Positions 17,816-29,302 of a DNA stretch of 33,031 nucleotides are shown here, piece by piece. This DNA comes from Candidatus Hermodarchaeota archaeon (GTDB lineage: Archaea > Asgardarchaeota > Lokiarchaeia > Sigyniarchaeales > SOKP01). Under the pieces are notes generated by a model. It was given only the letters and a program-made list of their open reading frames with translations, had not been told where the DNA came from and did no database searches. The position numbers and the translations under genes were made by a program. The stretch lies in NCBI GenBank assembly GCA_048885925.1, contig JBHLLG010000029.1, positions 1 through 33,031 of the forward strand. Reading direction: 5' to 3'. Within the stretch, counting starts at the first letter, position 1; every line of letters begins with the position of its first letter.

Positions 17816-18280
17816 TTAGCAAGGTTCTAATTTTATACCACAGCATTCACACAAGTTTTCGAGATTTTCAATATAGTTTAACATTGAATTGTACCATTTA
17901 TCTAATAACTTCTTAAATTCTCTTTTTATTGAATCTATGTTTTTTGCATTATAGATATAAAGATATCCCTGTTTTTTGTCATTTTCTGTCTTATGAGTTT
18001 TATTATAATCTTTCATTGATATTGATTTTCGTTTAATGAGTTTTAATCTTAACAAGCTTTTAACAGCTTTTTGAATTGAGCTCCTATCCATTTCAATTTT
18101 TTCAGTTAACTGAGATGTGGTTAAATCTTGATTTTTTAAAAGAACACAAAAAATTTTAGATTCTATTTCATTCAAACCGAGGATGCATTTAAATAATTCT
18201 TGACTTGAATATGATTCTTTTTTCTCTAAGATATTGTTTATCTTCCCAAAACCTTTTAGTTGTTTATCTATTATTTCCAA
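17816..18280 (-). CDS. TrmB/MarR-like HTH transcriptional regulator with a C-terminal Cys cluster
   Basis: KCILGLNEIESKIF...LTEKIEMDRSSIQKAVKSLLRLKLIKR and GYLYIY. C-terminus is LCECCGIKLEPC. AAGGTG SD 7 nt before the TTG. Confidence 0.8.
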   Translation of the reverse strand: MEIIDKQLKGFGKINNILEKKESYSSQELFKCILGLNEIESKIFCVLLKNQDLTTSQLTEKIEMDRSSIQKAVKSLLRLKLIKRKSISMKDYNKTHKTENDKKQGYLYIYNAKNIDSIKREFKKLLDKWYNSMLNYIENLENLCECCGIKLEPC

Positions 18281-18337
18281 TTATATACACCTTATAATTA
18301 TTAAATAATTAAAGAAAAAAAGAAAGTAAGTAATACT

Positions 18338-18745
18338 TTATTCATTTAGCTTTTCTAAAAGTTGCTTCATTCCATCATAATTCATAGCACCAATAACTTT
18401 ATTTAAAACTTCACCATTTTTTATAAACAAAGTTGTAGGAATGCCAGTTATTCCATATTTCATTGCTGGAACGCTGTTTTCATCAACATTGACCTTGGCA
18501 AAAATAAAATCCTCTTGAAATTCTTCTTGAAGCCTCTTAAAAATTGGTGCAAAAAACATACAAGGACCACACCAAACTGCCCAAAAATCAATGATTATTA
18601 CCTTATCTGGAAAATTCTTTAATAGATTATTAAAATCCTCAGCAGTGTTTAGTTCAACTATGCTTTTCGGCATCGGTTGTTGGTTTATTAAAGCTTCAGC
18701 TTTTTTCATTCTCAGCACTTCTAACTCTTTATCTGTTTCGTTCAT
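18338..18745 (-). CDS. trxA: Thioredoxin with archaeal N-terminal helical extension
   Basis: DFWAVWCGPC active site and GIPTTLF. ATG at 18745 (MNETDKELEVLRMKK) preferred over the GTG at 18775. Confidence 0.92.
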   Translation of the reverse strand: MNETDKELEVLRMKKAEALINQQPMPKSIVELNTAEDFNNLLKNFPDKVIIIDFWAVWCGPCMFFAPIFKRLQEEFQEDFIFAKVNVDENSVPAMKYGITGIPTTLFIKNGEVLNKVIGAMNYDGMKQLLEKLNE

Positions 18746-18924
18746 TTGTTTTTCACTTGTGAAATTTTTTTTCACAACTTTTTAATTATAATATATTTAA
18801 TACAGTATTTAAAAGTGATTGTAGTGCGAGAAAGTTCACTACTTTCCTAATTATTTTCAGTTATATTTTCAAGTAATAGAACAACAGATTGAAATGGGGT
18901 ATTAAAATAAATAAGAGAAAAAAA

Positions 18925-19005
18925 TCCTAGAAGTAATAATTAACTTCTAGGACAATGATATGGAAAAGAAAAGATGATAAAATAAATTTATCACTGTGAT
19001 GGTGA
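18925..19005. repeat. Copy 1 of a ~80-bp hairpin-containing repeat
   Basis: TCCTAGAAGT-aataatta-ACTTCTAGGA, then AATGATATGGAAAAGAAAAGATGATAAA, then TATCACTGTGATGGT. Confidence 0.9.
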
Positions 19006-19315
19006 AAAAAACACTAATGAATTGTTTCTCAGATTATTATTTAGCTTTTCTATCTAAATTATGGATAAATTAAAAAACGAAAATCTTCTATTTAAATATT
19101 TTTTGAAATTGTTTTAGGAAATTCATTTTTTCCACATATCAAAATATTATGTAGTTCTTGATCATTCCAAATTTTCAATATATTGAAAAAAATAAGTCTT
19201 ATTTTGACATTCCAACATATCAAGATTTTGTGATTTTTTAGGAGAACTAAGCTGTCTCAAATGCAATTTTCATAAATCCCTTTATAATAGGAAAAAAAAT
19301 GTCTAATTAATCAAG

Positions 19316-19395
19316 TATCCTAGAAGTATAAACTTCTAGGATAATGATATGGAAAAGAAAAGATGATAAATTAGTCTATGACCATGATAGTTCAA
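19316..19395. repeat. Copy 2 of the ~80-bp hairpin-containing repeat
   Basis: TATCCTAGAAGT-ataa-ACTTCTAGGATA, the identical 28-mer at 19343-19370, then TATGACCATGATAGT. Confidence 0.9.
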
Positions 19396-19416
19396 TATCT
19401 CGGAATTTATAATTCA

Positions 19417-19566
19417 CTATTCTTTAATATCAAATTTTGATTGCTCCTCTAATTCCACTTGCCAAAATTCGTCCTTTTCACATTTTTTACAAATTGCTAC
19501 TGAATTAGTAAAATCTAATTTCATTACATTCCCACATTTTATACATTTTATCTTTATCTTGCTTAT
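19417..19566 (-). CDS. Unannotated 49-aa zinc-ribbon microprotein, copy 1 (putative ATA start)
   Basis: Manual translation: (I/M)SKIKIKCIKCGNVMKLDFTNSVAICKKCEKDEFWQVELEEQSKFDIKE*. 33/49 identical to 26018..26167. Confidence 0.75.
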   Translation of the reverse strand: MSKIKIKCIKCGNVMKLDFTNSVAICKKCEKDEFWQVELEEQSKFDIKE

Positions 19567-19569
19567 CTC

Positions 19570-20547
19570 TTACACACCCTTCTCGATTTTTTTTTCGTCA
19601 ACAAATAAGAATAAAAAATTTTCCTCCAAACCTCTATTACGCTTTAAGCTTAAATCTCGTCTTCTGAAGGAGAGCATTCGCTGAAATTCTAAATCTCTGT
19701 TATATTTATGAGCATTTTCGATTATCTCTTCTAAGATTTTTTCTTTAATTCTATTCTCATTAATATCAATTCCATCAAATATTTGAATTTCAGAACACTT
19801 TTCAATAAAATTTTTTAATAATTCATCCGATAAAACATCAGACCTTTCTCTTATAGCATTATTAATTATGTCCTCCAATTTTTGATAATATTCTCTCTTA
19901 CAAAATTGACAAAGCATGCATTTTGAACTACGATTTTTAAATATATTGAGTATAATTAATCCAGTAATTAATTTGAAATTTTGAATTAAAATATCAATTT
20001 CTTGGTCTTTTTTCTTAGAATCTTTAATATATTGTTGAATATGTTTTTCTGCATCTAGATATAACTTAGAAAAAAATCTAGCTCTTGCAAAATATACGGG
20101 TACTATACAAAAAATTCGAAGAAACCAAAAAGAACTAATGCCTAGAGGAGGATTCTCAGAAAAAATATAATAAACTATTCGCCCCTCCCGCTCCTTATAT
20201 AAAGTAGATTCTTTTTCCAAAATATTTAAATATGTTGATATTGTAGAGCGAGCAACATCTTTAAAATATCGTTCATATTCTTCCTCAACATCTGCAGTAG
20301 TTACTTTTTCCTGTCCATCTAGATAAAACTTTAATATTATGCCTAATATACGATTTTCATGAAGAAGTCCTGTCTTTACCTGTTGTTCTTCCGCCTCATC
20401 CTCTCTAAATTGATATAAATAAGATAGTTCAGGAGCAAAATCTCGAATAACTTCATCCATTAACCTAAGTTCTGGATCTGATATCTCAAATTTTTCTATT
20501 TTAGGTCTTACGATCATTTCCTTTTCCATATCTATTTTTTCTAACAT
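19570..20547 (-). CDS. Winged-helix transcriptional regulator with a CxxCxxC motif
   Basis: VTTADVEEEY...VARSTISTYLNILEKESTLYKEREGRIVYY wHTH; KCMLCQFC motif further downstream. Confidence 0.7.
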   Translation of the reverse strand: MLEKIDMEKEMIVRPKIEKFEISDPELRLMDEVIRDFAPELSYLYQFREDEAEEQQVKTGLLHENRILGIILKFYLDGQEKVTTADVEEEYERYFKDVARSTISTYLNILEKESTLYKEREGRIVYYIFSENPPLGISSFWFLRIFCIVPVYFARARFFSKLYLDAEKHIQQYIKDSKKKDQEIDILIQNFKLITGLIILNIFKNRSSKCMLCQFCKREYYQKLEDIINNAIRERSDVLSDELLKNFIEKCSEIQIFDGIDINENRIKEKILEEIIENAHKYNRDLEFQRMLSFRRRDLSLKRNRGLEENFLFLFVDEKKIEKGV

Positions 20548-20619
20548 CTTAAAAAAACTCAGTCAAATAGTCTCTATTATCAAGTATTATTAGATATTCA
20601 ATTCCATTTATAGATTTAT

Positions 20620-20675
20620 ACTTCGCACTTCGAATAAAGTTCGGACTTCAGTCTGAAGTATAAAATTTAAATAAT
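20620..20675 (+). promoter_or_regulatory. Phased A(C/G)TTC operator array + TATA-like box in divergent promoter 1
   Basis: ACTTC at 20620, ACTTC at 20627, AGTTC at 20638, ACTTC at 20645. Inverted repeat ACTTCAG-T-CTGAAGT at 20645-20659. TTTAAATA near 20666. Confidence 0.6.
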
Positions 20676-20718
20676 AAAAACGAATTATATATACAAAAGC
20701 AAAAAAATAGGTTTTATT

Positions 20719-23715
20719 ATGAGTAGATCAAAGGGAATAATGTATCCTCCAGGAGATATATTGAATCCCACTTTAGGGAAAACTGATTATAGTTATATTA
20801 TCCTTTGGATGCTTAATAATAACGAATATTGTGAGTGGTCTGACTTTGTTGTAGAGATTAGTGAATCAACGTTATCAAGTCATTTGCGAAAATTAATGAA
20901 TAAAAATTTCGTCAAAAAGCCAGAAAGAAATAAATATAAAATTACTAAGCAAGGAACTGAACGATTCAATGAATTAACCTATAGTATGAGTACAGGAAAA
21001 AGACGTTTGGTCTATCCTCCAAGAACTATTCTTAATAAGCGGAATTACGATCATTGGATACTGTGGATGTTATATAATAATTATTCTTGTAAATGGATTG
21101 ATTTAAAACAAAAACCACTTTCTATTAATCAATCTGCCTTATCTAATAATATAAATTCATTAATAGAAGAAGGTTATATCGTTAGAGAAAATAAAGAATA
21201 TATAATAACTCCATTAGGTACATCACATTATTTTACAATTTTAAAACAATATGATCTAGACCGTCAATCGATTCTAGAACAACAAAGTAAAAGAGTCGAG
21301 GAAATTACAGAAAAAACATCTGAATTTTTCAATAGGTATAATATTAAGAATCAAGAGTTAAAATTTCGATATATTAATTATGTTCTAACATTAGATTACT
21401 CAAAAGTAGAATCCACGTTAAGAAATGAGGATGATTTCAATAAAATTTTATTATTCCTTGCAATTAATCATCCAGATCAATATTCAAATTATACATCTCC
21501 TGAAAAATTTTCCCAAAATTATAGTATTGATATTACGACACTTAATTATTATATTAAAGAGATTGTGGATAACCAATTTTTCAAGATAAAATTCTTTAAG
21601 ATTGAAGAGGAAACTGGACAAGATTATTATTTTCAAAAAAATGAACCACTTGAGAAAATCCTTAATGCCATTGTTGAAAAATATATTACAAAATTCACCT
21701 ATCTAAATAAATTTCAAGATAATCCTTCTCTAAACATTGAATTCTTACTAGATAAGATTTTGAAAGATATATGTGGTTATTTGTTTGATGTAAAATTTGA
21801 AATACCATTAAAGAACTTTTTACCTGAATATATAAAATATTTAGCTTATAATATAGGAACTGAGAAATCCTTAATTGATAGCGAGGCAAAATTAGAAGGT
21901 TTTGTATGGCAAAACATTTTTGAAGAGTTTTTGACATTTCAACCGTCTTCAACACCTACAGAGACTGGTAAAATAGATGAATCTGCTTATACCCTTGATA
22001 AATCAATTTTCAGCATTTTGGATATTTTTTATACTTCAAAGTTAAAGTTTTTACAAACAGATGAAATACAAGAGATTTATGGGCTTAAAAGTGTTGAAAT
22101 TTTTGATGATATTTATGAACTATTGTATAATTATAAAGTGCAAAAAGCAAGGGAACTATATGAGAAGAATAAGGAAGAACTCAATGAATTACATAAACTA
22201 ATTTTAAAAGATCTCCTTAATACTATAGAATATAATTTTAAAGAATCAATTAATATTACCAACAAAATTATTAAAAAGTATCCAGAAGATGTTATAGGAT
22301 ATTTATTCCAATCAATTACATACTTTCTAATGGATGATTATGAAAATTCATTAAATATTGTCGAAAAGGGATTAAAAGAAGCGCCAAATATTCTTTTATT
22401 TTGTCAAAAAGCTCAATTATTTATAAAAATGCGTAGAGCAGAGGAAATCATCAGTGATCTTGATGAAAGTTTATCTAAGCATCCTAATAATATTCCTTTA
22501 TTACGGACAAAGTATATATTTTTTATTAATCACTGGATTGCACATAAAAAAAGTTCTGAAAACATTTCTAATCCCATTAATTCTGCAATTAAATTGAAAC
22601 CAACAGATCAAGAGCTATTATTACTTAAAAGTCTATCTTATGTCTGGATGAATAAATACCAAGAGGCAAAAAAATTCATAATAAATAAAATTAATTTAAG
22701 TATCTTAAAAAAAAATCCTAGAATTGATACAAGTGCATTATTTATTTTGGCATTTTCTTATCTTGCACGAGGGAAATATAAAAAAGTTTTGAAAATAATA
22801 AATCAACTCTATGAATTCTATCCAGATCATCCAATATCAATCATTACAAAATCCATATTTCAAGGATATAACTTGATTTATAAATTTGGATTTGATCAAT
22901 CTAATATTAATACATTTTTAGAATTGATGGAAGCTATACTCTCTCTTGAACCACTAAAATATAATAAAGTTCAGTATCTCATTTTAAAAGCAATTATATT
23001 ACATGGAATACAACAATACGATATTGCTATTGACTCACTTAATACTGCAATTGAATTAATACCGGATCTAAATTATCTTTATCTTAGAAAAATTTTGTTT
23101 TTAACTGCGATAAATCGAGATTCTGAGGCTTTAAAATTGATTGAAGAATTAAATCTAAAAATTCCTCAATTAAAATTCAATCTTGGTCAATTAAAAACAT
23201 GTATTCTTGTTAAACAGAAAAATTATGAGGATGCTTTAAAGACCACCAATGATTTACTCAAGATATTCATTGATAAGATGGAAATTATAAATAATAAAGC
23301 TATAATTTTAGCATATTTAAATAAAAAAGAAGAAGCTTTAGAGGCTGCGGAACATTTAATCCAGCTTAATCCAAATTGGAGTAATTCCTATGATAGTTAT
23401 GGCATCATTCATATGTTTTTTGAACAATATGAACAAGCAATAGAGAAATTTGAAGAGGCTATAAGAATTGATCCAGCAAGTGATTTTGTTTTCCAGACAT
23501 GGTTAAACTTAGGTCTTTGTTATAAAAAACTTAAAAAGTATGATAAAGCACTGGAATCTTTTGAGAAAGGGAAATTACTTACAGAAAGAATGATCCCAAA
23601 TTTAAGAGAATTCTATTTTAATGAAGCTTTTAATGAAGCAGAAAAAAATCTTTCAGAAATAAAAATAATAATAGAAAAATTGAAAAAAGGGGATCATCAA
23701 CACTCGGAAAAATGA
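20719..23715 (+). CDS. Tandem winged-helix + TPR repeat protein (paralog A)
   Basis: Two internal repeats YPP..I...ILWML.NN...W.D....S.LS.....L...(F/Y)V/I...Y.IT..G (wHTH). C-terminal TPRs such as YDSYGIIHMFFEQYEQAIEKFEEAIRIDP and WLNLGLCYKKLKKYDKALESFEKG. Confidence 0.85.
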   Translation: MSRSKGIMYPPGDILNPTLGKTDYSYIILWMLNNNEYCEWSDFVVEISESTLSSHLRKLMNKNFVKKPERNKYKITKQGTERFNELTYSMSTGKRRLVYPPRTILNKRNYDHWILWMLYNNYSCKWIDLKQKPLSINQSALSNNINSLIEEGYIVRENKEYIITPLGTSHYFTILKQYDLDRQSILEQQSKRVEEITEKTSEFFNRYNIKNQELKFRYINYVLTLDYSKVESTLRNEDDFNKILLFLAINHPDQYSNYTSPEKFSQNYSIDITTLNYYIKEIVDNQFFKIKFFKIEEETGQDYYFQKNEPLEKILNAIVEKYITKFTYLNKFQDNPSLNIEFLLDKILKDICGYLFDVKFEIPLKNFLPEYIKYLAYNIGTEKSLIDSEAKLEGFVWQNIFEEFLTFQPSSTPTETGKIDESAYTLDKSIFSILDIFYTSKLKFLQTDEIQEIYGLKSVEIFDDIYELLYNYKVQKARELYEKNKEELNELHKLILKDLLNTIEYNFKESINITNKIIKKYPEDVIGYLFQSITYFLMDDYENSLNIVEKGLKEAPNILLFCQKAQLFIKMRRAEEIISDLDESLSKHPNNIPLLRTKYIFFINHWIAHKKSSENISNPINSAIKLKPTDQELLLLKSLSYVWMNKYQEAKKFIINKINLSILKKNPRIDTSALFILAFSYLARGKYKKVLKIINQLYEFYPDHPISIITKSIFQGYNLIYKFGFDQSNINTFLELMEAILSLEPLKYNKVQYLILKAIILHGIQQYDIAIDSLNTAIELIPDLNYLYLRKILFLTAINRDSEALKLIEELNLKIPQLKFNLGQLKTCILVKQKNYEDALKTTNDLLKIFIDKMEIINNKAIILAYLNKKEEALEAAEHLIQLNPNWSNSYDSYGIIHMFFEQYEQAIEKFEEAIRIDPASDFVFQTWLNLGLCYKKLKKYDKALESFEKGKLLTERMIPNLREFYFNEAFNEAEKNLSEIKIIIEKLKKGDHQHSEK

Positions 23716-23720
23716 TCTAA

Positions 23721-24383
23721 ATGGATTACCAATTCATAGAAACAGTTACTCTTGATTTTGACTTGGGGAAATTATTATCAGTTGATTTCAGCTTAAATTT
23801 TGGTAGTTCATGTACAGTTAGTCTAACTGAAAAAGTGATGGATGAAATAATAGATTATATTCAAAATGAAGGAGCTCCAGATTTTATATGGTTTAAGAGA
23901 ATAAAAACCTCATTTAAGCATGCAAAATGTAAAGAAATTGTTAAACAAATTAAAATGGTTTATCCAAATCAAAAAATTGGTATCTACTTAAATTGTGCAC
24001 TTTTTCAAGATGTAAAAATTAGAAAAGATTTTTATAAGTATGATTTAGTTGCGATAAATTTGAATACAGTTGATCCTTTAAATTTCTCAAAGATTAATCA
24101 ATGCGCTGATTCTGTAGATTCAGAAAAAATTTTAGCAGGAATTAAAGAATTCAGAACAAAATTCAATGGTAATTTTGGGATTTACTCCTTATTCTTACAC
24201 GGGATAAATGATAGTAGTGAAAATCTGGAATCTTTAAAGATGTTTTTATTAAAAACAATACCAGATCATTTTTCTATTAGTACTTATACTTTAAATGGAT
24301 TTGAACCTATTTCAAAAGAATTTAAGAATAAAGTTAAAGAGACTTTCAGATACCTCCCATTTAAGGTATATTATAGGTTTTAA
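23721..24383 (+). CDS. Degenerate radical-SAM-fold protein lacking CxxxCxxC
   Basis: LG..LSVD, DLVAINLNTVDPLNFSKIN, ILAGIKEF...F.G, LFLHGINDS and PD....ST resemble an uncharacterised archaeal/bacterial radical SAM family, but no Cys triad is present. Confidence 0.55.
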   Translation: MDYQFIETVTLDFDLGKLLSVDFSLNFGSSCTVSLTEKVMDEIIDYIQNEGAPDFIWFKRIKTSFKHAKCKEIVKQIKMVYPNQKIGIYLNCALFQDVKIRKDFYKYDLVAINLNTVDPLNFSKINQCADSVDSEKILAGIKEFRTKFNGNFGIYSLFLHGINDSSENLESLKMFLLKTIPDHFSISTYTLNGFEPISKEFKNKVKETFRYLPFKVYYRF

Positions 24384-24444
24384 AATAACATGAGTAATAA
24401 GAATTAATTATTATATTTACTTTATAATTAAAAAAAAAATAAAT

Positions 24445-25767
24445 TTATTCTATAGAATCAGCAATTTGTACAACTTCAGGGATTTCTATAATTTCCTCTT
24501 CTTTCTTCTTTTCAGCTTCCGCTTCTGCCATCTTTTCGCGATCAATTATTTCAAGGTGTCTAATTTTTGTGAAAAACCATACAAAAAGCGGAAATATTAT
24601 GCCTAATATAGCGCATGTAAGGAATAAATTAATTATCCCGAATATTTCTGCTATTGGACCAGCAATAAGTGCTCCAATCGGAGCAATTGCCATAGAAATC
24701 ATATGATCAATCGACATTATACGTCCAACTTTATCCTTCGAAACAACTGTTTGCAGGATTGCTAAATATGTTGAGACTGTGATTGGAAACAATACTGCTC
24801 CTGGAAAAAGTGAAATCATCATAAGAATAAAATTCCCTTTAGGAGCTAAAATCGCAGGTATTTGTCCAAGAAAGAATAACGATGCTCCAATTACATTTAT
24901 CTTGATCTTATGTTTCCATGTTTTCTTAATTGACATTACAATAGCACCAGTTATATTTCCTAGTTGCATTGCCATCATTAATAGTGCCAAGTTGAAAGCG
25001 GAGCCGTCATGTGTATATCTAATGAAATATGGAGTTAAAACAGCCCATGGTCTATGAATAAAGTTCCATACCATCGCAAATAAAATCATCGCAAGCAAAC
25101 CAGGGATCAATTTAATTGTTAATAATCCTGTTTTGAAGTCTTTAAACATCGATTTTTTGACAGCTTCTTCAGTTGTCTGGTAGACTTTGGGAATTTTAAT
25201 AATCAATAATGGGATAAGTGCAATCAGGAAAGTTATTCCGTCGATAAGGAAAATTTGGGTTATTGGAAAAATTGCTAAAAGTGTCGCTGCAATCATTGGA
25301 CCTAATGCATAAATTAATCCATTAAACAAAAAATTTATCCCATTAATCCTACTTAGGTGTTCTTTTGGAACCATAGTTGGTATAAGTGATAACACTGTGG
25401 GATATTGAAATGCAAATAACCCTGCCCTAAATGTATTCATTCCTAAAACAAACCAAATACTTTGAAAATCCACTAAAAAAAACACAAATAATAAAGTTGT
25501 TGACATCGCTTGCAATGTATCTGAAATTACTATTATCACTTTTTTATTCCATCTATCTGCAATAACTCCTGAGAATGGTGTTACAATAATCTGTGGAAGA
25601 AACATCAAAAAGGTTGAAATTGAAAGATAAACTGCACTACCAGTCTCTATAGTAATCCACCATGTTATAACAAAATTAACTATCAACGATCCTAACATAG
25701 AAAACTGTTGCCCAAATAAAAAATACAGATAATGTCTAAAGCTTGTTTTCGTCACATTTGTTTCCAT
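24445..25767 (-). CDS. MFS transporter (DHA3/MefA-like efflux)
   Basis: GQQFSMLGS, PFSGVIADRWNKK (motif A) and MVPKEHLSRING; 12 TM pattern. Confidence 0.92.
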   Translation of the reverse strand: METNVTKTSFRHYLYFLFGQQFSMLGSLIVNFVITWWITIETGSAVYLSISTFLMFLPQIIVTPFSGVIADRWNKKVIIVISDTLQAMSTTLLFVFFLVDFQSIWFVLGMNTFRAGLFAFQYPTVLSLIPTMVPKEHLSRINGINFLFNGLIYALGPMIAATLLAIFPITQIFLIDGITFLIALIPLLIIKIPKVYQTTEEAVKKSMFKDFKTGLLTIKLIPGLLAMILFAMVWNFIHRPWAVLTPYFIRYTHDGSAFNLALLMMAMQLGNITGAIVMSIKKTWKHKIKINVIGASLFFLGQIPAILAPKGNFILMMISLFPGAVLFPITVSTYLAILQTVVSKDKVGRIMSIDHMISMAIAPIGALIAGPIAEIFGIINLFLTCAILGIIFPLFVWFFTKIRHLEIIDREKMAEAEAEKKKEEEIIEIPEVVQIADSIE

Positions 25768-25842
25768 TTTAACTTACTTCTTGAATATAAATTTTTCATT
25801 ATTCTATACTAATCACTATTTTTATTTATAGATTAATTAGAT

Positions 25843-25885
25843 GAACTTAAAATAAACTCTGAACTTAATTCTGAACTATCACTTA
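25843..25885 (-). promoter_or_regulatory. Phased AGTTC array upstream of the MFS gene
   Basis: The minus strand reads AGTTCAGAATTA-AGTTCAG-AGTTTATTTTA-AGTTCAT (spacing 12/7/11). Confidence 0.5.
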
Positions 25886-26017
25886 AATTTATTCTACAAT
25901 TTTTACACTTAATTGAAATTCAAAAATATGAAATAAAATAACTTCACTATAAATCAAACTAAGGATGAAATTCAAGTTTGGATAATCATCTTTTATTATA
26001 TAAGAAATCATAATTAA

Positions 26018-26167
26018 TTATTCAATATTTTTAAGTTTTGGGTGATCCTCAGGTTCAATGTGCCAAAATTCGTGCTTTTCACATTTCTTACAAATTGCTA
26101 CTGAATTAGAGAAATCTAACTTCATTACATTACCGCATTTTATACATTGTATCTTTAATTTACCCAT
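26018..26167 (-). CDS. Unannotated 49-aa zinc-ribbon microprotein, copy 2
   Basis: MGKLKIQCIKCGNVMKLDFSNSVAICKKCEKHEFWHIEPEDHPKLKNIE*. ATG start with GAGG upstream; paralog at 19417..19566. Confidence 0.85.
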   Translation of the reverse strand: MGKLKIQCIKCGNVMKLDFSNSVAICKKCEKHEFWHIEPEDHPKLKNIE

Positions 26168-26209
26168 TTTCGCATATTCCTCTAATTTTAATTAAAAAAT
26201 AAAAAAAAA

Positions 26210-26293
26210 TTACCTAAAGAAACTGCTATAATTTAGATTATAACTTGCCGTATCATTCCTAATTATAATGATTCTTTTTCTGTTTTTATTCAT
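26210..26293 (-). CDS. Candidate 27-aa peptide
   Basis: MNKNRKRIIIIRNDTASYNLNYSSFFR*. GGAAGGTTG SD-like site before the ATG; co-oriented between two small genes. Confidence 0.4.
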   Translation of the reverse strand: MNKNRKRIIIIRNDTASYNLNYSSFFR

Positions 26294-26334
26294 CTTTTCA
26301 ACCTTCCTTTTTCATTTTTATATGTTTTTATATA

Positions 26335-26583
26335 TTAATAAATTGCATAAACCCTATATACTGATTTCTGCTTAACACGATTTATGGGAATTAAATCTCG
26401 ATGATAAATTCCGTTATATTTAGAGATTAATCTTGAGATGTTATTACTAAGTTTCTTTTCTTCTAATGGTTCCTCTAATCTTTGAATATCTCCCCTTTCA
26501 ACATCGCTTAAACATTTTTTGATAACTTCTTCTACATCAACACAATTTTTTCTTACATCCTTATTTATTACTGCTTGAGCCAT
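26335..26583 (-). CDS. Hypothetical 82-aa protein
   Basis: ATG with GAGGT SD; first gene of the small-gene set divergent from the wHTH-TPR paralog B. Confidence 0.7.
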   Translation of the reverse strand: MAQAVINKDVRKNCVDVEEVIKKCLSDVERGDIQRLEEPLEEKKLSNNISRLISKYNGIYHRDLIPINRVKQKSVYRVYAIY

Positions 26584-26670
26584 TATTTAAACCTCTTTTT
26601 TTATTGTTTTGATATTTTTTTTTCTTAAGTTTTTATAATCAAAAAAAACATTTATAGTTTCTATTACAAA

Positions 26671-26735
26671 ACTTCGCAAGTAGTTTGTAGTCCAATAGAA
26701 GTTCATAGTACAGAGTGAACCAGAACATTTATAAA
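26671..26735 (+). promoter_or_regulatory. Phased operator array + TATA-like box in divergent promoter 2
   Basis: ACTTC at 26671, AGTTT at 26682, AGTCC at 26689, AGTTC at 26700, AGTAC at 26707 (11/7/11/7). TTTATAAA near 26728. Confidence 0.55.
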
Positions 26736-26779
26736 TTAGAAAACTTAATCATATATTGTTAAAACTTTGGTGTTTACTA

Positions 26780-29302
26780 ATGAGTGGAACACATGAAATA
26801 AACTACCCCTCTGAAGAAATTCAAACCCAGTTATTAGGTGAAAAACAAAATACTGAACATCTTATTTTATGGATGCTTAAAAATAATGAAGCAGTAGGAT
26901 GGTCGAATTTTATGGAGGAACCAATTGGTATTCCTCAATCTACGTTATCGAATTATATGGCAACTCTCATAACTAATGGATTTGTAAAGAAACCGAAAAG
27001 GGGAATTTATGAAATAACTGTAGAGGGAGAAAAAAGATTTAATGAATTATCTCGATCACAGGAAACTAAAAGAAAATTAAGTTATCCGCCTGATACTATT
27101 ATTGGAGGGCGTAATTATGATGATATAATTCTTTGGATGGCATATAATAATAATTATCTAAAATGGGCAGATTTCATTGATAGTGATAGTCCAGTATTCA
27201 TTAATCAATCATCATTATCAAAAAATATTAAATTATTAGTAAGTAAAGGTTCAATAAAAAAAGACGACCAGACGAAAGAATATCAAATTACCCAAAAAGG
27301 TAAAACTGAATACTCAAAGATGTTAAAACAATACAATTTAGACAGACAATCTATTTTGGATGAAGAAGCCAAGAGAATCGAGGAGATTACAAAAAAAACA
27401 ATTGCATTTTTTGAAAAATATAAAATAAAAGACGGAGATGTTAAATTTCGATTTTTAAATAACATTTTAAAGTTACCTTTCGCAAATTTGAAAGGTTCTT
27501 TAGATTCAGAGGAAGAATTTAACAAGATATTGTTATTTTTATCAATGAATCATCCAAATCAATTTCCTGATTACATTCCACCTGAGCAATTTTCCAAAAA
27601 ATATTTTATTAATTTATTAGATCTTAAATTTAATATTCGTCAAATTATTGAAAAAGAGGCCTATACGACAAAATTTTTTAGGTTAAAGGCTGGGGAGAAC
27701 ATAGTTTATTATTTTCAAGCAAATGAGAAAATAGAGAAAGTTCTTAGTGCGATAACTGAGGATCATATAACAAAATTTACCTATTTAAATAAATTATATG
27801 TCAATACTCCAAAAGGAGCTCCAAAATTAAGTTTAAATTCTACTGTTAATGCAATTTTAGAGGAGATATGTGATAATTTATTTCATGAGGGATTAAAAGA
27901 ACCATTAAGAGAGTTTTTACCTGAATATATAAAGAATTTAGCTTATAAAATAGAATCTGAAAGAAAGTTATTAGATACATTGGATAAGTTGGAGGGAGTT
28001 GCCTGGAGGGATATTCCTGAAGTATTTCAATCCTATAGTACACAGCAAGATTTAATAGAACAAGCTCAATTCAAATATTACATCGATTATTCAATACTAA
28101 AAGTATTAAGTCTATTTTCTTCTCCTAAAATTGAAAAGAAATTCGAAGAAGCAAAATATTTAATGAAACATAAGGATTTCGATAATGTATTAGAAAAATT
28201 AAATTCTGATATCGAATCAGAACCAAACAACTTAAACTTATTATTCTTAAAAGTAATTTTTTTAATTTTATCAAACAGACATCAAGAAGCAATTCGATTT
28301 CTGAAAGAAGAGCTAAAAAGCTATTCGAATAAAAACGATGAGAAATTTGTAATTCCTTATAATTTTATATTATTATACATCAATTTAGTATTAGCTGAAT
28401 TTAATAAAGCTTTAAAAATCAGTAAAAAATTATCTGATGAGTATCCAGATCATCCGTTATCCTATATTTCAAAAGCTTTAATATTTGGATATAAAATTAT
28501 CTATCAACTTGATTTAGGAAATATAAGAATAGATCAAGTATTGGTTGATATTGATCAAGCCATTTCTTTAGATTCAAATAAAGGTAATAAAGCGAAATAT
28601 TATCACTTTAAGAGTTTTGTTTTACATCAAATAAAGAAATATGATGAAGCGCTTGAAGCGATTGAAACTGCTATTGAGTTAGATCCTAAAGATCTTCATT
28701 TACATTTTATGAAATACAATATTTTATATGATTATGAAAAAATAGATAAAGCTTTAGAACTGGTAGATCAAGCTATAAAAGAGTTTCCTAAATATGAAAT
28801 TAAATTATCCATACATAAAGCATTTCTTTATAAAAAGAATAACAACTTTAAAGAAGGATTAAAAATAATAAATGATTTACTTGAAAAATACCCTCATGAG
28901 GTAGATCTCTTAAATAATAAGTTATACTGGCATTTATATCTTCAAGAAAAAAATGAAGCAATTGAAACAGGAAAACTACTCACTACTTTAGAGCCTGATG
29001 ATGGAAATTTTCATGATTCATATGCTGAAGCTTTAATGGAATTTGGTGAGTACGATGAAGCGATTAAAGAGATACAAAAAGCCTTAGAACTTGAACCATA
29101 TGGTTGGTTTACTTATAATTCATATCTTACGGTAGCAAAATGTTATAAGGAGATCGGGGAATATAATTTCGTACGAGAAGCTTTAGATAAAGGAGAAGGG
29201 GCGATAAACACATGTTTTTGTGGAATAGAAAAAAGAAGAGAATGGAAAGACAAAAAATTAAAACTTTTAAACGAATTAGAAAATTTAGAGAGAACAATTT
29301 AA
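26780..29302 (+). CDS. Tandem winged-helix + TPR repeat protein (paralog B)
   Basis: Collinear with 20719..23715 (ILWML.NN, YPP..I...NYD..ILWM.YNN, LKQY.LDRQSIL, FNKILLFL..NHP.Q, FLPEYIK.LAY). ATG at 26780 with GGTG SD preferred over the TTG at 26756. Confidence 0.85.
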   Translation: MSGTHEINYPSEEIQTQLLGEKQNTEHLILWMLKNNEAVGWSNFMEEPIGIPQSTLSNYMATLITNGFVKKPKRGIYEITVEGEKRFNELSRSQETKRKLSYPPDTIIGGRNYDDIILWMAYNNNYLKWADFIDSDSPVFINQSSLSKNIKLLVSKGSIKKDDQTKEYQITQKGKTEYSKMLKQYNLDRQSILDEEAKRIEEITKKTIAFFEKYKIKDGDVKFRFLNNILKLPFANLKGSLDSEEEFNKILLFLSMNHPNQFPDYIPPEQFSKKYFINLLDLKFNIRQIIEKEAYTTKFFRLKAGENIVYYFQANEKIEKVLSAITEDHITKFTYLNKLYVNTPKGAPKLSLNSTVNAILEEICDNLFHEGLKEPLREFLPEYIKNLAYKIESERKLLDTLDKLEGVAWRDIPEVFQSYSTQQDLIEQAQFKYYIDYSILKVLSLFSSPKIEKKFEEAKYLMKHKDFDNVLEKLNSDIESEPNNLNLLFLKVIFLILSNRHQEAIRFLKEELKSYSNKNDEKFVIPYNFILLYINLVLAEFNKALKISKKLSDEYPDHPLSYISKALIFGYKIIYQLDLGNIRIDQVLVDIDQAISLDSNKGNKAKYYHFKSFVLHQIKKYDEALEAIETAIELDPKDLHLHFMKYNILYDYEKIDKALELVDQAIKEFPKYEIKLSIHKAFLYKKNNNFKEGLKIINDLLEKYPHEVDLLNNKLYWHLYLQEKNEAIETGKLLTTLEPDDGNFHDSYAEALMEFGEYDEAIKEIQKALELEPYGWFTYNSYLTVAKCYKEIGEYNFVREALDKGEGAINTCFCGIEKRREWKDKKLKLLNELENLERTI

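Follow-up and report, generated by a model that had tools for sequence, protein, structure and literature searches.

Probable local wHTH-TPR regulators with class-specific operator-like blocks and divergent microprotein cassettes in an Asgard archaeal lineage

What do the two large genes of this locus control, and what might the repeat domains of their products bind? The DNA considered here, called the window, is a stretch of 33,031 nucleotides from a Candidatus Hermodarchaeota archaeon (GenBank assembly GCA_048885925.1, contig JBHLLG010000029.1, positions 1 to 33,031 of the forward strand). Between positions 19417 and 29302 it encodes two paralogous proteins with winged helix-turn-helix (wHTH) and tetratricopeptide repeat (TPR) domains, each head-to-head with a minus-strand gene set that includes a zinc-ribbon (ZR) microprotein. 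From comparison with related sequences it appears fairly likely that the two proteins belong to a family of local, autoregulatory, one-component transcription regulators, which would act through a class-specific operator on their own gene and on the divergent microprotein cassette. One-component wHTH-TPR regulators are of a kind already known; the unusual part of the arrangement is the conserved microprotein cassette.

In the mechanism proposed here, the two N-terminal winged helices of one chain would read A(C/G)TTC repeats lying between back-to-back TATA boxes. The regulator would thereby set the transcription of its own gene, together with that of the gene p220 downstream, and that of the divergent genes. 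Opposite regulators of the ~990-aa and ~840-aa classes, these genes encode a small protein of 70-82 aa (p70/p82), a 27-aa peptide (p27), the zinc ribbon, and often a second, shorter ribbon. The C-terminal TPR array would be the signal-receiving or partner-binding part. Local regulation via the conserved operator is well founded, and the sensing of a microprotein by the TPR array is a guess. The regulators and the control regions in the window are as follows.

20719..23715, plus strand: regulator 1, of the ~990-aa class; 998 aa, with wHTH 1, wHTH 2, a long helix, a third winged-helix-like/helical middle part and a long TPR array.
26780..29302, plus strand: regulator 2, of the ~840-aa class; 840 aa from the ATG, paralog of regulator 1.
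20604..20674: control region 1; TTTATAG (20607), five ACTTC/AGTTC/GAAGT pentamers (20620, 20627, 20638, 20645, 20655) and the TATA-like TTTAAATA (20666).
26651..26736: control region 2; TTTATAG (26651), pentamers at 26671, 26698 and 26700 with degenerate AGTT-type repeats, and TTTATAAAT (26728).

An earlier reading of this DNA (hereafter the preliminary description) had noted two collinear paralogous wHTH-wHTH-TPR proteins, each head-to-head with a minus-strand gene set. The open reading frame (ORF) listing and the domain matches bear this out: regulators 1 and 2 are collinear, with 35% identity over 866 columns (E 6e-130, BLASTP). An in-frame TTG at 26756 precedes the ATG of regulator 2. The first ~180 residues of both proteins match Pfam winged-helix families (HTH_34, HTH_45, MarR, HTH_5 and HxlR). 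Regulator 1 scores 38.4 bits with HTH_34 (cut-off 27), and regulator 2 scores 34.0 bits with HTH_45 (cut-off 25.5) and 27.8 with HTH_34 (cut-off 27). The winged helix is present in duplicate in each chain, and the chains are recognized by the curated models for PadR/HxlR/MarR-like wHTH regulators. In the C-terminal half of both, multiple TPR families exceed their Pfam cut-offs. No XRE/HTH_3 family matched the regulators at E <= 0.01 in Pfam, and no P-loop NTPase (NB-ARC/AAA) domain was found in them by Pfam or NCBIfam; in an NCBIfam scan of seven proteins, none passed the curated cut-offs.

An AlphaFold2 model of residues 1-450 of regulator 1, made from a 34-sequence alignment (predicted local distance difference test, pLDDT, 73; predicted template modeling score, pTM, 0.39), places wHTH 1 at 24-92 and wHTH 2 at 110-178, followed by a long helix. 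The next predicted part is a helical region ending in a third helix-plus-hairpin, winged-helix-like unit (~237-306), after which further helices are found. This model had no match in the PDB at E <= 1e-3 by Foldseek, and the top rows, all non-significant, were multi-winged-helix proteins (SarS, RPC62) and MarR/PadR/HxlR regulators. A middle region of ~250 residues is without a match, and a profile search of PDB sequences with the regulator returned generic TPR proteins only.

An indication of what the regulators may act on comes from the DNA between the divergent genes. Twenty aligned upstream regions of the ~990-aa class share one strongly conserved block, which runs from the TATA-like box of the divergent unit to that of the regulator and has a mean information of 1.07 bits per column, compared with 0.55 outside it. 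The ~45 nt between the boxes hold ACTTC-G-x-ACTTC, an inverted GAAGT, ACTT and a second GAAGT. The boxes are putative TATA elements, judged by the promoter architecture of archaea. A 71-nt matrix of the block, trained without the window genome and used at a score threshold of 15, has two matches only in the 3.9-Mb genome. One is at window position 20604 (score 80.2) and the other at C11:5178 (77.0), and each precedes a gene of the ~990-aa class. In the ~840-aa class, five aligned upstream regions share a block of another kind, with repeated AGTTC between two TATA-like boxes. The ~640-aa class (L101, L103, L105, L132, L135; -170..-31) has a different one, GGAGTCTTGGAT .. ATGGATCA, also between two TATA-like boxes. 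Mean pentamer counts in -170..-31 are 5.4 for the ~990-aa class (n=22), 4.5 for the ~840-aa class (n=4) and 1.3 for the ~640-aa class (n=13), with a background of 0.65 for the four pentamers.

These alignments suggest a private operator for each regulator class. A class-specific repeat array between divergent core promoters is the expected signature of a local, autoregulating DNA-binding protein, and the regulators are probably autoregulated. The preliminary description had proposed that the wHTHs control the divergent promoter. The part of this proposal that concerns the DNA stands, as the operator-like block between the divergent promoters is conserved; the binding of the tandem winged helices to the block and the direction of regulation are what we infer from it.

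Is the association of the ZR gene with these regulators a local accident? In a comparison of genomes of the genus, ZR is present in 21 of 35 (0/24 in other genera). Of the 20 listed places outside the window genome (G000) with at least 58% identity to regulator 1, 17 are preceded, at 180-1200 bp, by a ZR match on the opposite strand, as judged by eye from the listings. The three exceptions are G001:C61:9149, where the contig ends ~1.1 kb upstream, G032:C281 and G007:C5. Twenty loci fetched from kin genomes had been selected for holding ZR; an unbiased set is provided by 78 metagenome loci found by the regulator N-terminus alone and scanned with hidden Markov models (HMMs). In this set, 16/23 loci of the ~990-aa class have ZR on the divergent strand at a distance of up to 2.5 kb, as against 0/54 loci of the other classes; of the seven ~990-aa-class loci without it, three have <800 nt of upstream DNA. 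The linkage is class-specific and more than a one-off local duplication. The outcome named in advance as refuting the preliminary description, ZR homologs unlinked to wHTH-TPR genes elsewhere, is not what is seen in related genomes and independent metagenome contigs.

The regulators form a lineage-specific, multi-paralog family, whose strong matches lie in one GTDB family of the Asgard phylum (labeled 'Promethearchaeota'/Lokiarchaeia). Regulator 1 has 790 database relatives at E <= 1e-3, and they are named only 'tetratricopeptide repeat protein', 'winged helix-turn-helix domain-containing protein' or 'hypothetical'. Among 300 sampled genomes of the phylum, matches with E < 1e-100 are all in GTDB family f1 (58/67 of its genomes), and the weaker matches outside f1 cover the TPR part of the regulator profile. 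Within the genus, 33 of 35 genomes carry the regulator in 2-10 copies each, and 2/24 genomes of other genera carry it. The window genome (3.9 Mb, 95% complete, 181 contigs) has seven paralogs of the regulator N-terminus, and its only ZR genes are the two in the window. Orthologs of regulator 2 with 63-65% identity were found in L042, L049, L053 and L055. The paralogs face differing divergent genes, namely microprotein cassettes, a secreted ~450-aa protein (C54, C71), a membrane protein (C102) and a small GTPase (C57), a pattern that local regulators show. A full-text literature search turned up, in its listings and the openings of abstracts, no paper on the wHTH-TPR family or on such cassettes in Asgard archaea. 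To the extent of those listings and the generic database names, this agrees with the preliminary description, which recognized no described system with this arrangement.

Some further paralogs may be noted. Two of them, on C54 and C71, are divergent from genes for the ~450-aa proteins (G000:C54:2368-3798 and C71:5756-7081), which are similar to each other and have an N-terminal hydrophobic segment. The GTPase faced by the C57 paralog is Ras-like, and further p70-like and 84-89-aa genes are found with it. Contig C11 carries a second module of a winged-helix gene (w325, described below), a ~990-aa regulator and p220, without ZR.

Several observations weigh against local autoregulation through the block. 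Contacts between proteins are another role of winged helices, and the model of the N-terminal part, at its pTM of 0.39, has no significant structural match. Other DNA-binding proteins encoded nearby, w325 and a TrmB-family protein, could bind the block. Control region 2 in the window is the most degenerate copy of the ~840-aa-class consensus. Near-duplicate metagenome loci (L072/L073, L068/L069, L076/L083, L059/L060, L066/L067) reduce the number of independent lineages, and most of the compared genomes are close kin, whose conserved gene order and intergenic sequence are partly due to shared descent.

The divergent gene sets of the window are composed as follows.

19417..19566, minus strand: ZR1, a 49-codon CxxC..CxxC zinc-ribbon ORF with ATA at the start position and an AGGGTG Shine-Dalgarno-like site upstream.
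19570..20547, minus strand: w325, 325 aa, with an ArsR/BlaI-like winged helix (~61-129), a helical domain and an invariant CxxC; divergent from regulator 1.
26018..26167, minus strand: ZR2, a 49-aa zinc-ribbon microprotein with an ATG start and AGAGGA upstream.
26210..26293, minus strand: p27, 27 aa, basic at the N-terminus, with a run of Ile and an aromatic motif at the C-terminus; GGAAGG upstream.
26335..26583, minus strand: p82, the first gene of cassette 2, belonging to the 70-82-aa 'p70' family.

In relatives, the divergent ORFs of the ~990-aa class follow the order p70, p27, long ribbon, short ribbon, the last of which is often present. The p70 found upstream of this class has 69-77 aa and starts with MVQVLEK. 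The p27 peptides of relatives have 27-32 aa, with a basic head, an Ile run and the aromatic C-terminal motif. The long ZR has 45-46 aa and ends in ..NFDF or ..EGIL, and the short ZR has 32 aa and stops directly after the second CxxC. An alignment of the ZR family has C8, C11, G12, C26 and C29 invariant. In the ~840-aa class, p82 is accompanied by a peptide resembling p27, a ribbon of another type (68-75 aa, CPxC) and a gene of the major facilitator superfamily (MFS); in the window and L042, the ribbon of this class belongs to the ZR family instead of the CPxC type. The ribbons of 68-75 aa (CPxCxC .. CPxC) form a second, unrelated family, which takes the place of ZR in ~840-aa-class cassettes of L049 (4964-5170), L053 and L055, and likewise in metagenome locus L126.

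The small ORFs of the cassette are real coding genes under purifying selection, because their ratios of non-synonymous to synonymous divergence (dN/dS) are low and Shine-Dalgarno sites are enriched before them. The median pairwise dN/dS, from pairs that are non-independent, is 0.34 for the long ZR, 0.10 for the short ZR, 0.36 for p27 and 0.40 for p70. A Shine-Dalgarno core precedes 34/49 cassette starts and 63/756 other ATGs of the same stretches. Alignments place p82 and p70 in one family (35 unique sequences) and show p27 to be conserved (19 unique sequences). Copy 2, with its 82-aa, 27-aa and ZR genes, is thus the canonical cassette, and copy 1, in which w325 stands before ZR, a rearranged, derived form. 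For p82 there is no Pfam family and no ESM Atlas match at 0.9 or more; the Atlas model has a pLDDT of 0.43. In L049 (180-263 nt upstream of the regulator start) and at L065:415-531, p70 has collapsed, its first seven codons being fused in frame to the p27 body, and p27 is kept.

The members of the cassette differ in age. Profile searches found ZR in 26 of the 39 genomes of genus g1, and no true ZR microprotein among 80 genomes of other genera, where there were seven weak profile matches only. Six of these were fetched: four are mutually similar proteins of ~303-323 aa, one is an unrelated 337-aa ORF, and the sixth has no assignment. Two of the four were run through Pfam and are TFB (TFIIB repeat, 154 bits). 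In sister genera, HMMs matched p70 at six, p27 at two and ZR at none of ten ~990-aa-class loci. By these distributions, p70 and p27 are the older partners, accompanying the regulators across the GTDB family, and ZR is a genus-level addition.

ZR1 and ZR2 are 73% identical (dN 0.17, dS 0.53), and a repeat search recovered their duplication as a 173-nt direct repeat (19384-19556 and 25985-26157, 80% identical). In the core (codons 5-35) there are six synonymous and three non-synonymous changes, and in the tail (codons 36-48) there are 11 non-synonymous changes. The statement of the preliminary description that the same zinc ribbon ends both sets is right as to the two copies, but it overlooked that ZR1 starts with ATA. 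ZR1 is in frame with w325, one codon past its TAA stop, with ATA (window 19564-19572) where ZR2 has ATG. Contigs from four other sequencing runs span 19528-19688, the w325/ZR1 junction, and that of X2 has zero differences, which makes an assembly error unlikely as the cause of the absent ATG. In L066:7228-7395 and L067:4500-4667, from a distinct species, a w325 homolog is likewise followed by a ribbon gene with ATA as its first codon and AGGTG before it, and other members of the ZR family start at TTG. The view of ZR1 as a pseudogene is weakened by these cases, on account of which ZR1 is probably functional, through a near-cognate start or translation coupled to w325.

The intervening genes do differ between the two sets, as had been described, with a 325-aa wHTH protein in one and the 82-aa and 27-aa ORFs in the other. 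The 'CxxCxxC' ascribed to the former is a peculiarity of the window: in an alignment of ten relatives only the CxxC (C210, C213) and C147 are invariant (10/10), and the third Cys of the motif is window-specific. w325 narrowly exceeds the Pfam cut-off for Penicillinase_R (22.7 bits; cut-off 22.6). Its AlphaFold2 model (pLDDT 72, pTM 0.74) has no PDB match at E <= 1e-3 by Foldseek, where the wHTH part alone matches with E >= 0.03. A paralog with 56% identity is encoded on contig C11. The in-frame position of ZR1 and weak ZR matches in ~320-aa frames had raised the idea of a w325-ZR fusion in a sister genus; it was rejected, since of the six frames fetched, four are similar to one another, with TFB identified in both of those run through Pfam, and a fifth is unrelated.

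How do the regulators compare with known systems? They resemble the RRNPP family of Bacillota and their phages (PlcR, NprR, Rgg, PrgX, AimR) in joining an N-terminal DNA-binding part and a C-terminal TPR-type array in one polypeptide beside small ORFs. RRNPP proteins have one XRE-type HTH, whereas the proteins considered here have two winged helices and a third winged-helix-like unit; the small proteins form a three- to four-gene cassette that includes zinc ribbons, and the host is archaeal. The N-termini of the cassette proteins are rich in Lys/Arg and, by inspection, have no long hydrophobic segment or obvious export signal. No RRNPP structure was among the Foldseek rows of the N-terminal model, and the PDB profile search gave generic TPR proteins only. 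The TPR array is the shared feature, with peptide binding putative. The RRNPP architecture invoked in the preliminary description does not amount to membership, because of the tandem winged helix in place of an XRE HTH, the lack of a fold or sequence relation in these searches and the archaeal lineage.

The STAND regulators (MalT, AfsR/SARP-like) are likewise large regulators, in which a DNA-binding domain is joined to a long sensor array of TPRs. They differ in the type of DNA-binding domain and in their NTPase domain, for which the Pfam and NCBIfam searches gave no counterpart here. SarS, of the two-domain SarA family (PDB 1p4x), has tandem winged helices in one chain and was the top Foldseek row; the match is not significant (E 6.5e-3, TM 0.15-0.25), and SarS is bacterial and lacks TPR.

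ZR has likenesses of its own. The one-domain C(P)XCG zinc-finger micro-proteins of Haloferax volcanii, as excerpts of the published accounts describe them, have <70 aa and two CxxC motifs (PMC6562870, PMC11241148, PMC10716476). ZR matches this class, which is descriptive and, going by those excerpts, not a homologous family, in size and in its two invariant CxxC pairs, the first followed by Gly, with zinc binding predicted; it differs in its restriction to one genus and its fixed cassette beside a regulator. Among solved structures, the best matches of the ZR profile are two 49-aa chains of RNA polymerase subunit P/Rpo12 (4qiw_P; E 6.4e-4 and 1.5e-3), the common stretch being C-x-K-C-G-K/R-E-V/I-K/E-L-D, and its weak genome matches fall on TFB ribbons. 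The genome's own rpoP is at C24:20690-20800 (35.8 bits on PF03604), and a PF03604 search of the genome did not include the ZRs of the window among its matches. The short ZR scores 15.1 bits on PF03604 (cut-off 24), which leaves it outside Rpo12/RpoP. That ZR might be a paralog of this rpoP was considered and found unsupported, the ZR profile and rpoP giving no match (hhalign probability 16%). The relation of ZR to Rpo12 and TFB is read from these scores as resemblance, not membership.

Two further genes flank the regulators and cassettes.

23721..24383, plus strand: p220, 220 aa, beginning 5 nt after regulator 1; homologous to a radical-SAM protein but without CxxxCxxC.
24445..25767, minus strand: MFS transporter, 440 aa, downstream of cassette 2; MFS_1, 118 bits (Pfam).

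In the window, on C11 and in 13 fetched loci, p220 or a homolog of it comes immediately after the ~990-aa gene, and p220 is probably co-transcribed with regulator 1. The 222-aa protein encoded at G000:C102:3924-4592 is 34% identical to p220 (E 2e-38), contains CxxxCxxC and matches Radical_SAM with 46.4 bits in Pfam. p220 itself has no PF04055 match even at E <= 1 and no CxxxCxxC, which places it outside radical SAM enzymes as defined by these features; its sequence reads as an inactivated enzyme fold. The intact radical-SAM paralog on C102 lies ~1.3 kb from another regulator paralog. The MFS gene keeps its position in ~840-aa-class loci of three other genomes (L049, L053, L055).

What, then, might the TPR array of these regulators bind? 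A cassette product, or several of them (p27, p70/p82, the ZR tail), may bind it inside the cell and alter DNA binding, which would close a feedback loop. This is possible, if doubtful. The adjacency of cassette and regulator is persistent and class-specific despite heavy local rearrangement, and all cassette proteins have conserved aromatic-rich C-termini (..NFDF or ..EGIL in the long ZR, Y/F-x-S/T-Y/F in p27). TPR domains often clamp C-terminal peptides, as in Hop-EEVD and PEX5-PTS1. The conserved cores and diverged tails of ZR1 and ZR2 would fit tails that adapt to different partners, but also relaxed constraint. However, ZR was not found outside one genus though the regulators span the family, ZR beside the ~840-aa class in L042 is without any tail, and p70 is deleted to its start codon in L049 and L065, so that no single microprotein is universally kept. 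A prediction in which residues 185-986 of the L044 protein, of the ~990-aa class, were complexed with the long ZR of that locus and a zinc ion scored 0.00 (mark 0.32); it gives no verdict and is counted neither way.

A more elaborate version, rather improbable at present, would be an intracellular-microprotein switch in which the TPR array reads how abundant its own cassette products are or what state they are in, the candidates being p27, the disordered p70/p82 protein and the Cys4 ribbon. Zinc or the thiol redox state might be what the ribbon reports, as thioredoxin, TrmB-like, glyoxalase and DJ-1 neighbors would suggest, and the ribbon might in turn act on the basal transcription machinery, in view of its likeness to the Rpo12 and TFB ribbons. 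A switch of this type has no described archaeal counterpart.

It is unlikely that ZR is a mere passenger, kept by inherited gene order in one genus without functional coupling, and that the cassette is a group of unrelated small genes. Such an origin would agree with the confinement of ZR to genus g1 and with the 13/39 genomes of that genus that have no ZR match, as well as with ZR genes that stand beside a glyoxalase-family gene without a regulator in L057, L058 and a second place in L045. It accounts poorly for the persistence of ZR divergent from ~990-aa-class genes through many neighborhood rearrangements, for its absence from the 54 loci of other classes, and for the purifying selection on it; in two genomes (the window and L042), p82, p27 and ZR have also relocated as a group to the ~840-aa class.

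The winged helices might alternatively serve, with the TPR array, as a scaffold that assembles a complex with the microproteins and p220, the block being bound by w325 or the TrmB-like factor. The Foldseek rows include protein-binding multi-winged-helix subunits (RPC62, cullin, TFIIIC), none of them significant, p220 resembles an inactivated enzyme fold retained as a partner, and w325 is a second wHTH protein nearby in most genomes. We regard this as distinctly improbable: the block is found upstream of ~990-aa-class genes with or without an adjacent w325 and varies by regulator class, as expected if the adjacent paralog reads it, and the wHTH families that match in Pfam are DNA-binding ones.

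In streptococci, radical-SAM peptide operons are under the control of Rgg-type HTH-TPR regulators. A cluster like those for ribosomally synthesized and post-translationally modified peptides, in which p27 or p70 would be the precursor, p220 a maturase derived from radical SAM or a subunit that binds the peptide, and the MFS protein the exporter, with peptide recognition or regulation of the cluster falling to the wHTH/TPR protein, could explain small conserved peptides beside a radical-SAM homolog and a transporter but is very improbable, given that p220 lacks the CxxxCxxC cluster motif and a Pfam Radical_SAM match, that the ~840-aa class has a cassette but no p220, that the MFS gene goes with the ~840-aa class and not with p220, and that no other maturase, protease or immunity gene is conserved there.

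Local autoregulation through a private operator, the preferred reading, would bear on a field in which little is known: transcription regulation in Asgard archaea is poorly understood, and their small proteins are almost wholly unstudied. The locus gives an expanded regulator family, with 2-10 copies per genome, and a fixed cassette in which three to four microproteins are conserved, with ATA as the apparent start of one. The putative operator code is readable, as paralog classes are one base apart in the repeat (ACTTC and AGTTC), and the parts lend themselves to testing, with defined DNA sites, short peptides that can be synthesized and a TPR domain. Should the TPR array read a microprotein, the system would represent one-component circuits of a new type; otherwise it would still be a clean example of diversification of a regulator family and its operators in an archaeal lineage related to eukaryotes.

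Some minor features of the region remain to be mentioned. The Rfam and tRNA scans of the whole window gave none, and no RNA runs were listed as containing window 19400-29300. Genes of the TrmB, thioredoxin, glyoxalase and ATC-hydrolase families travel with the region in shuffled order, as does a gene that we take to be DJ-1/PfpI-like, a name assigned apart from the Pfam runs. A 46-nt direct repeat (18939-18984 and 19328-19373, 93% identical, 389 nt apart) lies in the ORF-poor gap 18776-19416 just downstream of ZR1. At 17816-18775, a TrmB-family wHTH gene, whose product has a Cys-rich tail, is paired with a thioredoxin gene, and the pair is kept in L044, L046-L049 and L053; it recalls the thiol-based TrmB regulators as they appear in excerpts of a published account (PMC9426492).

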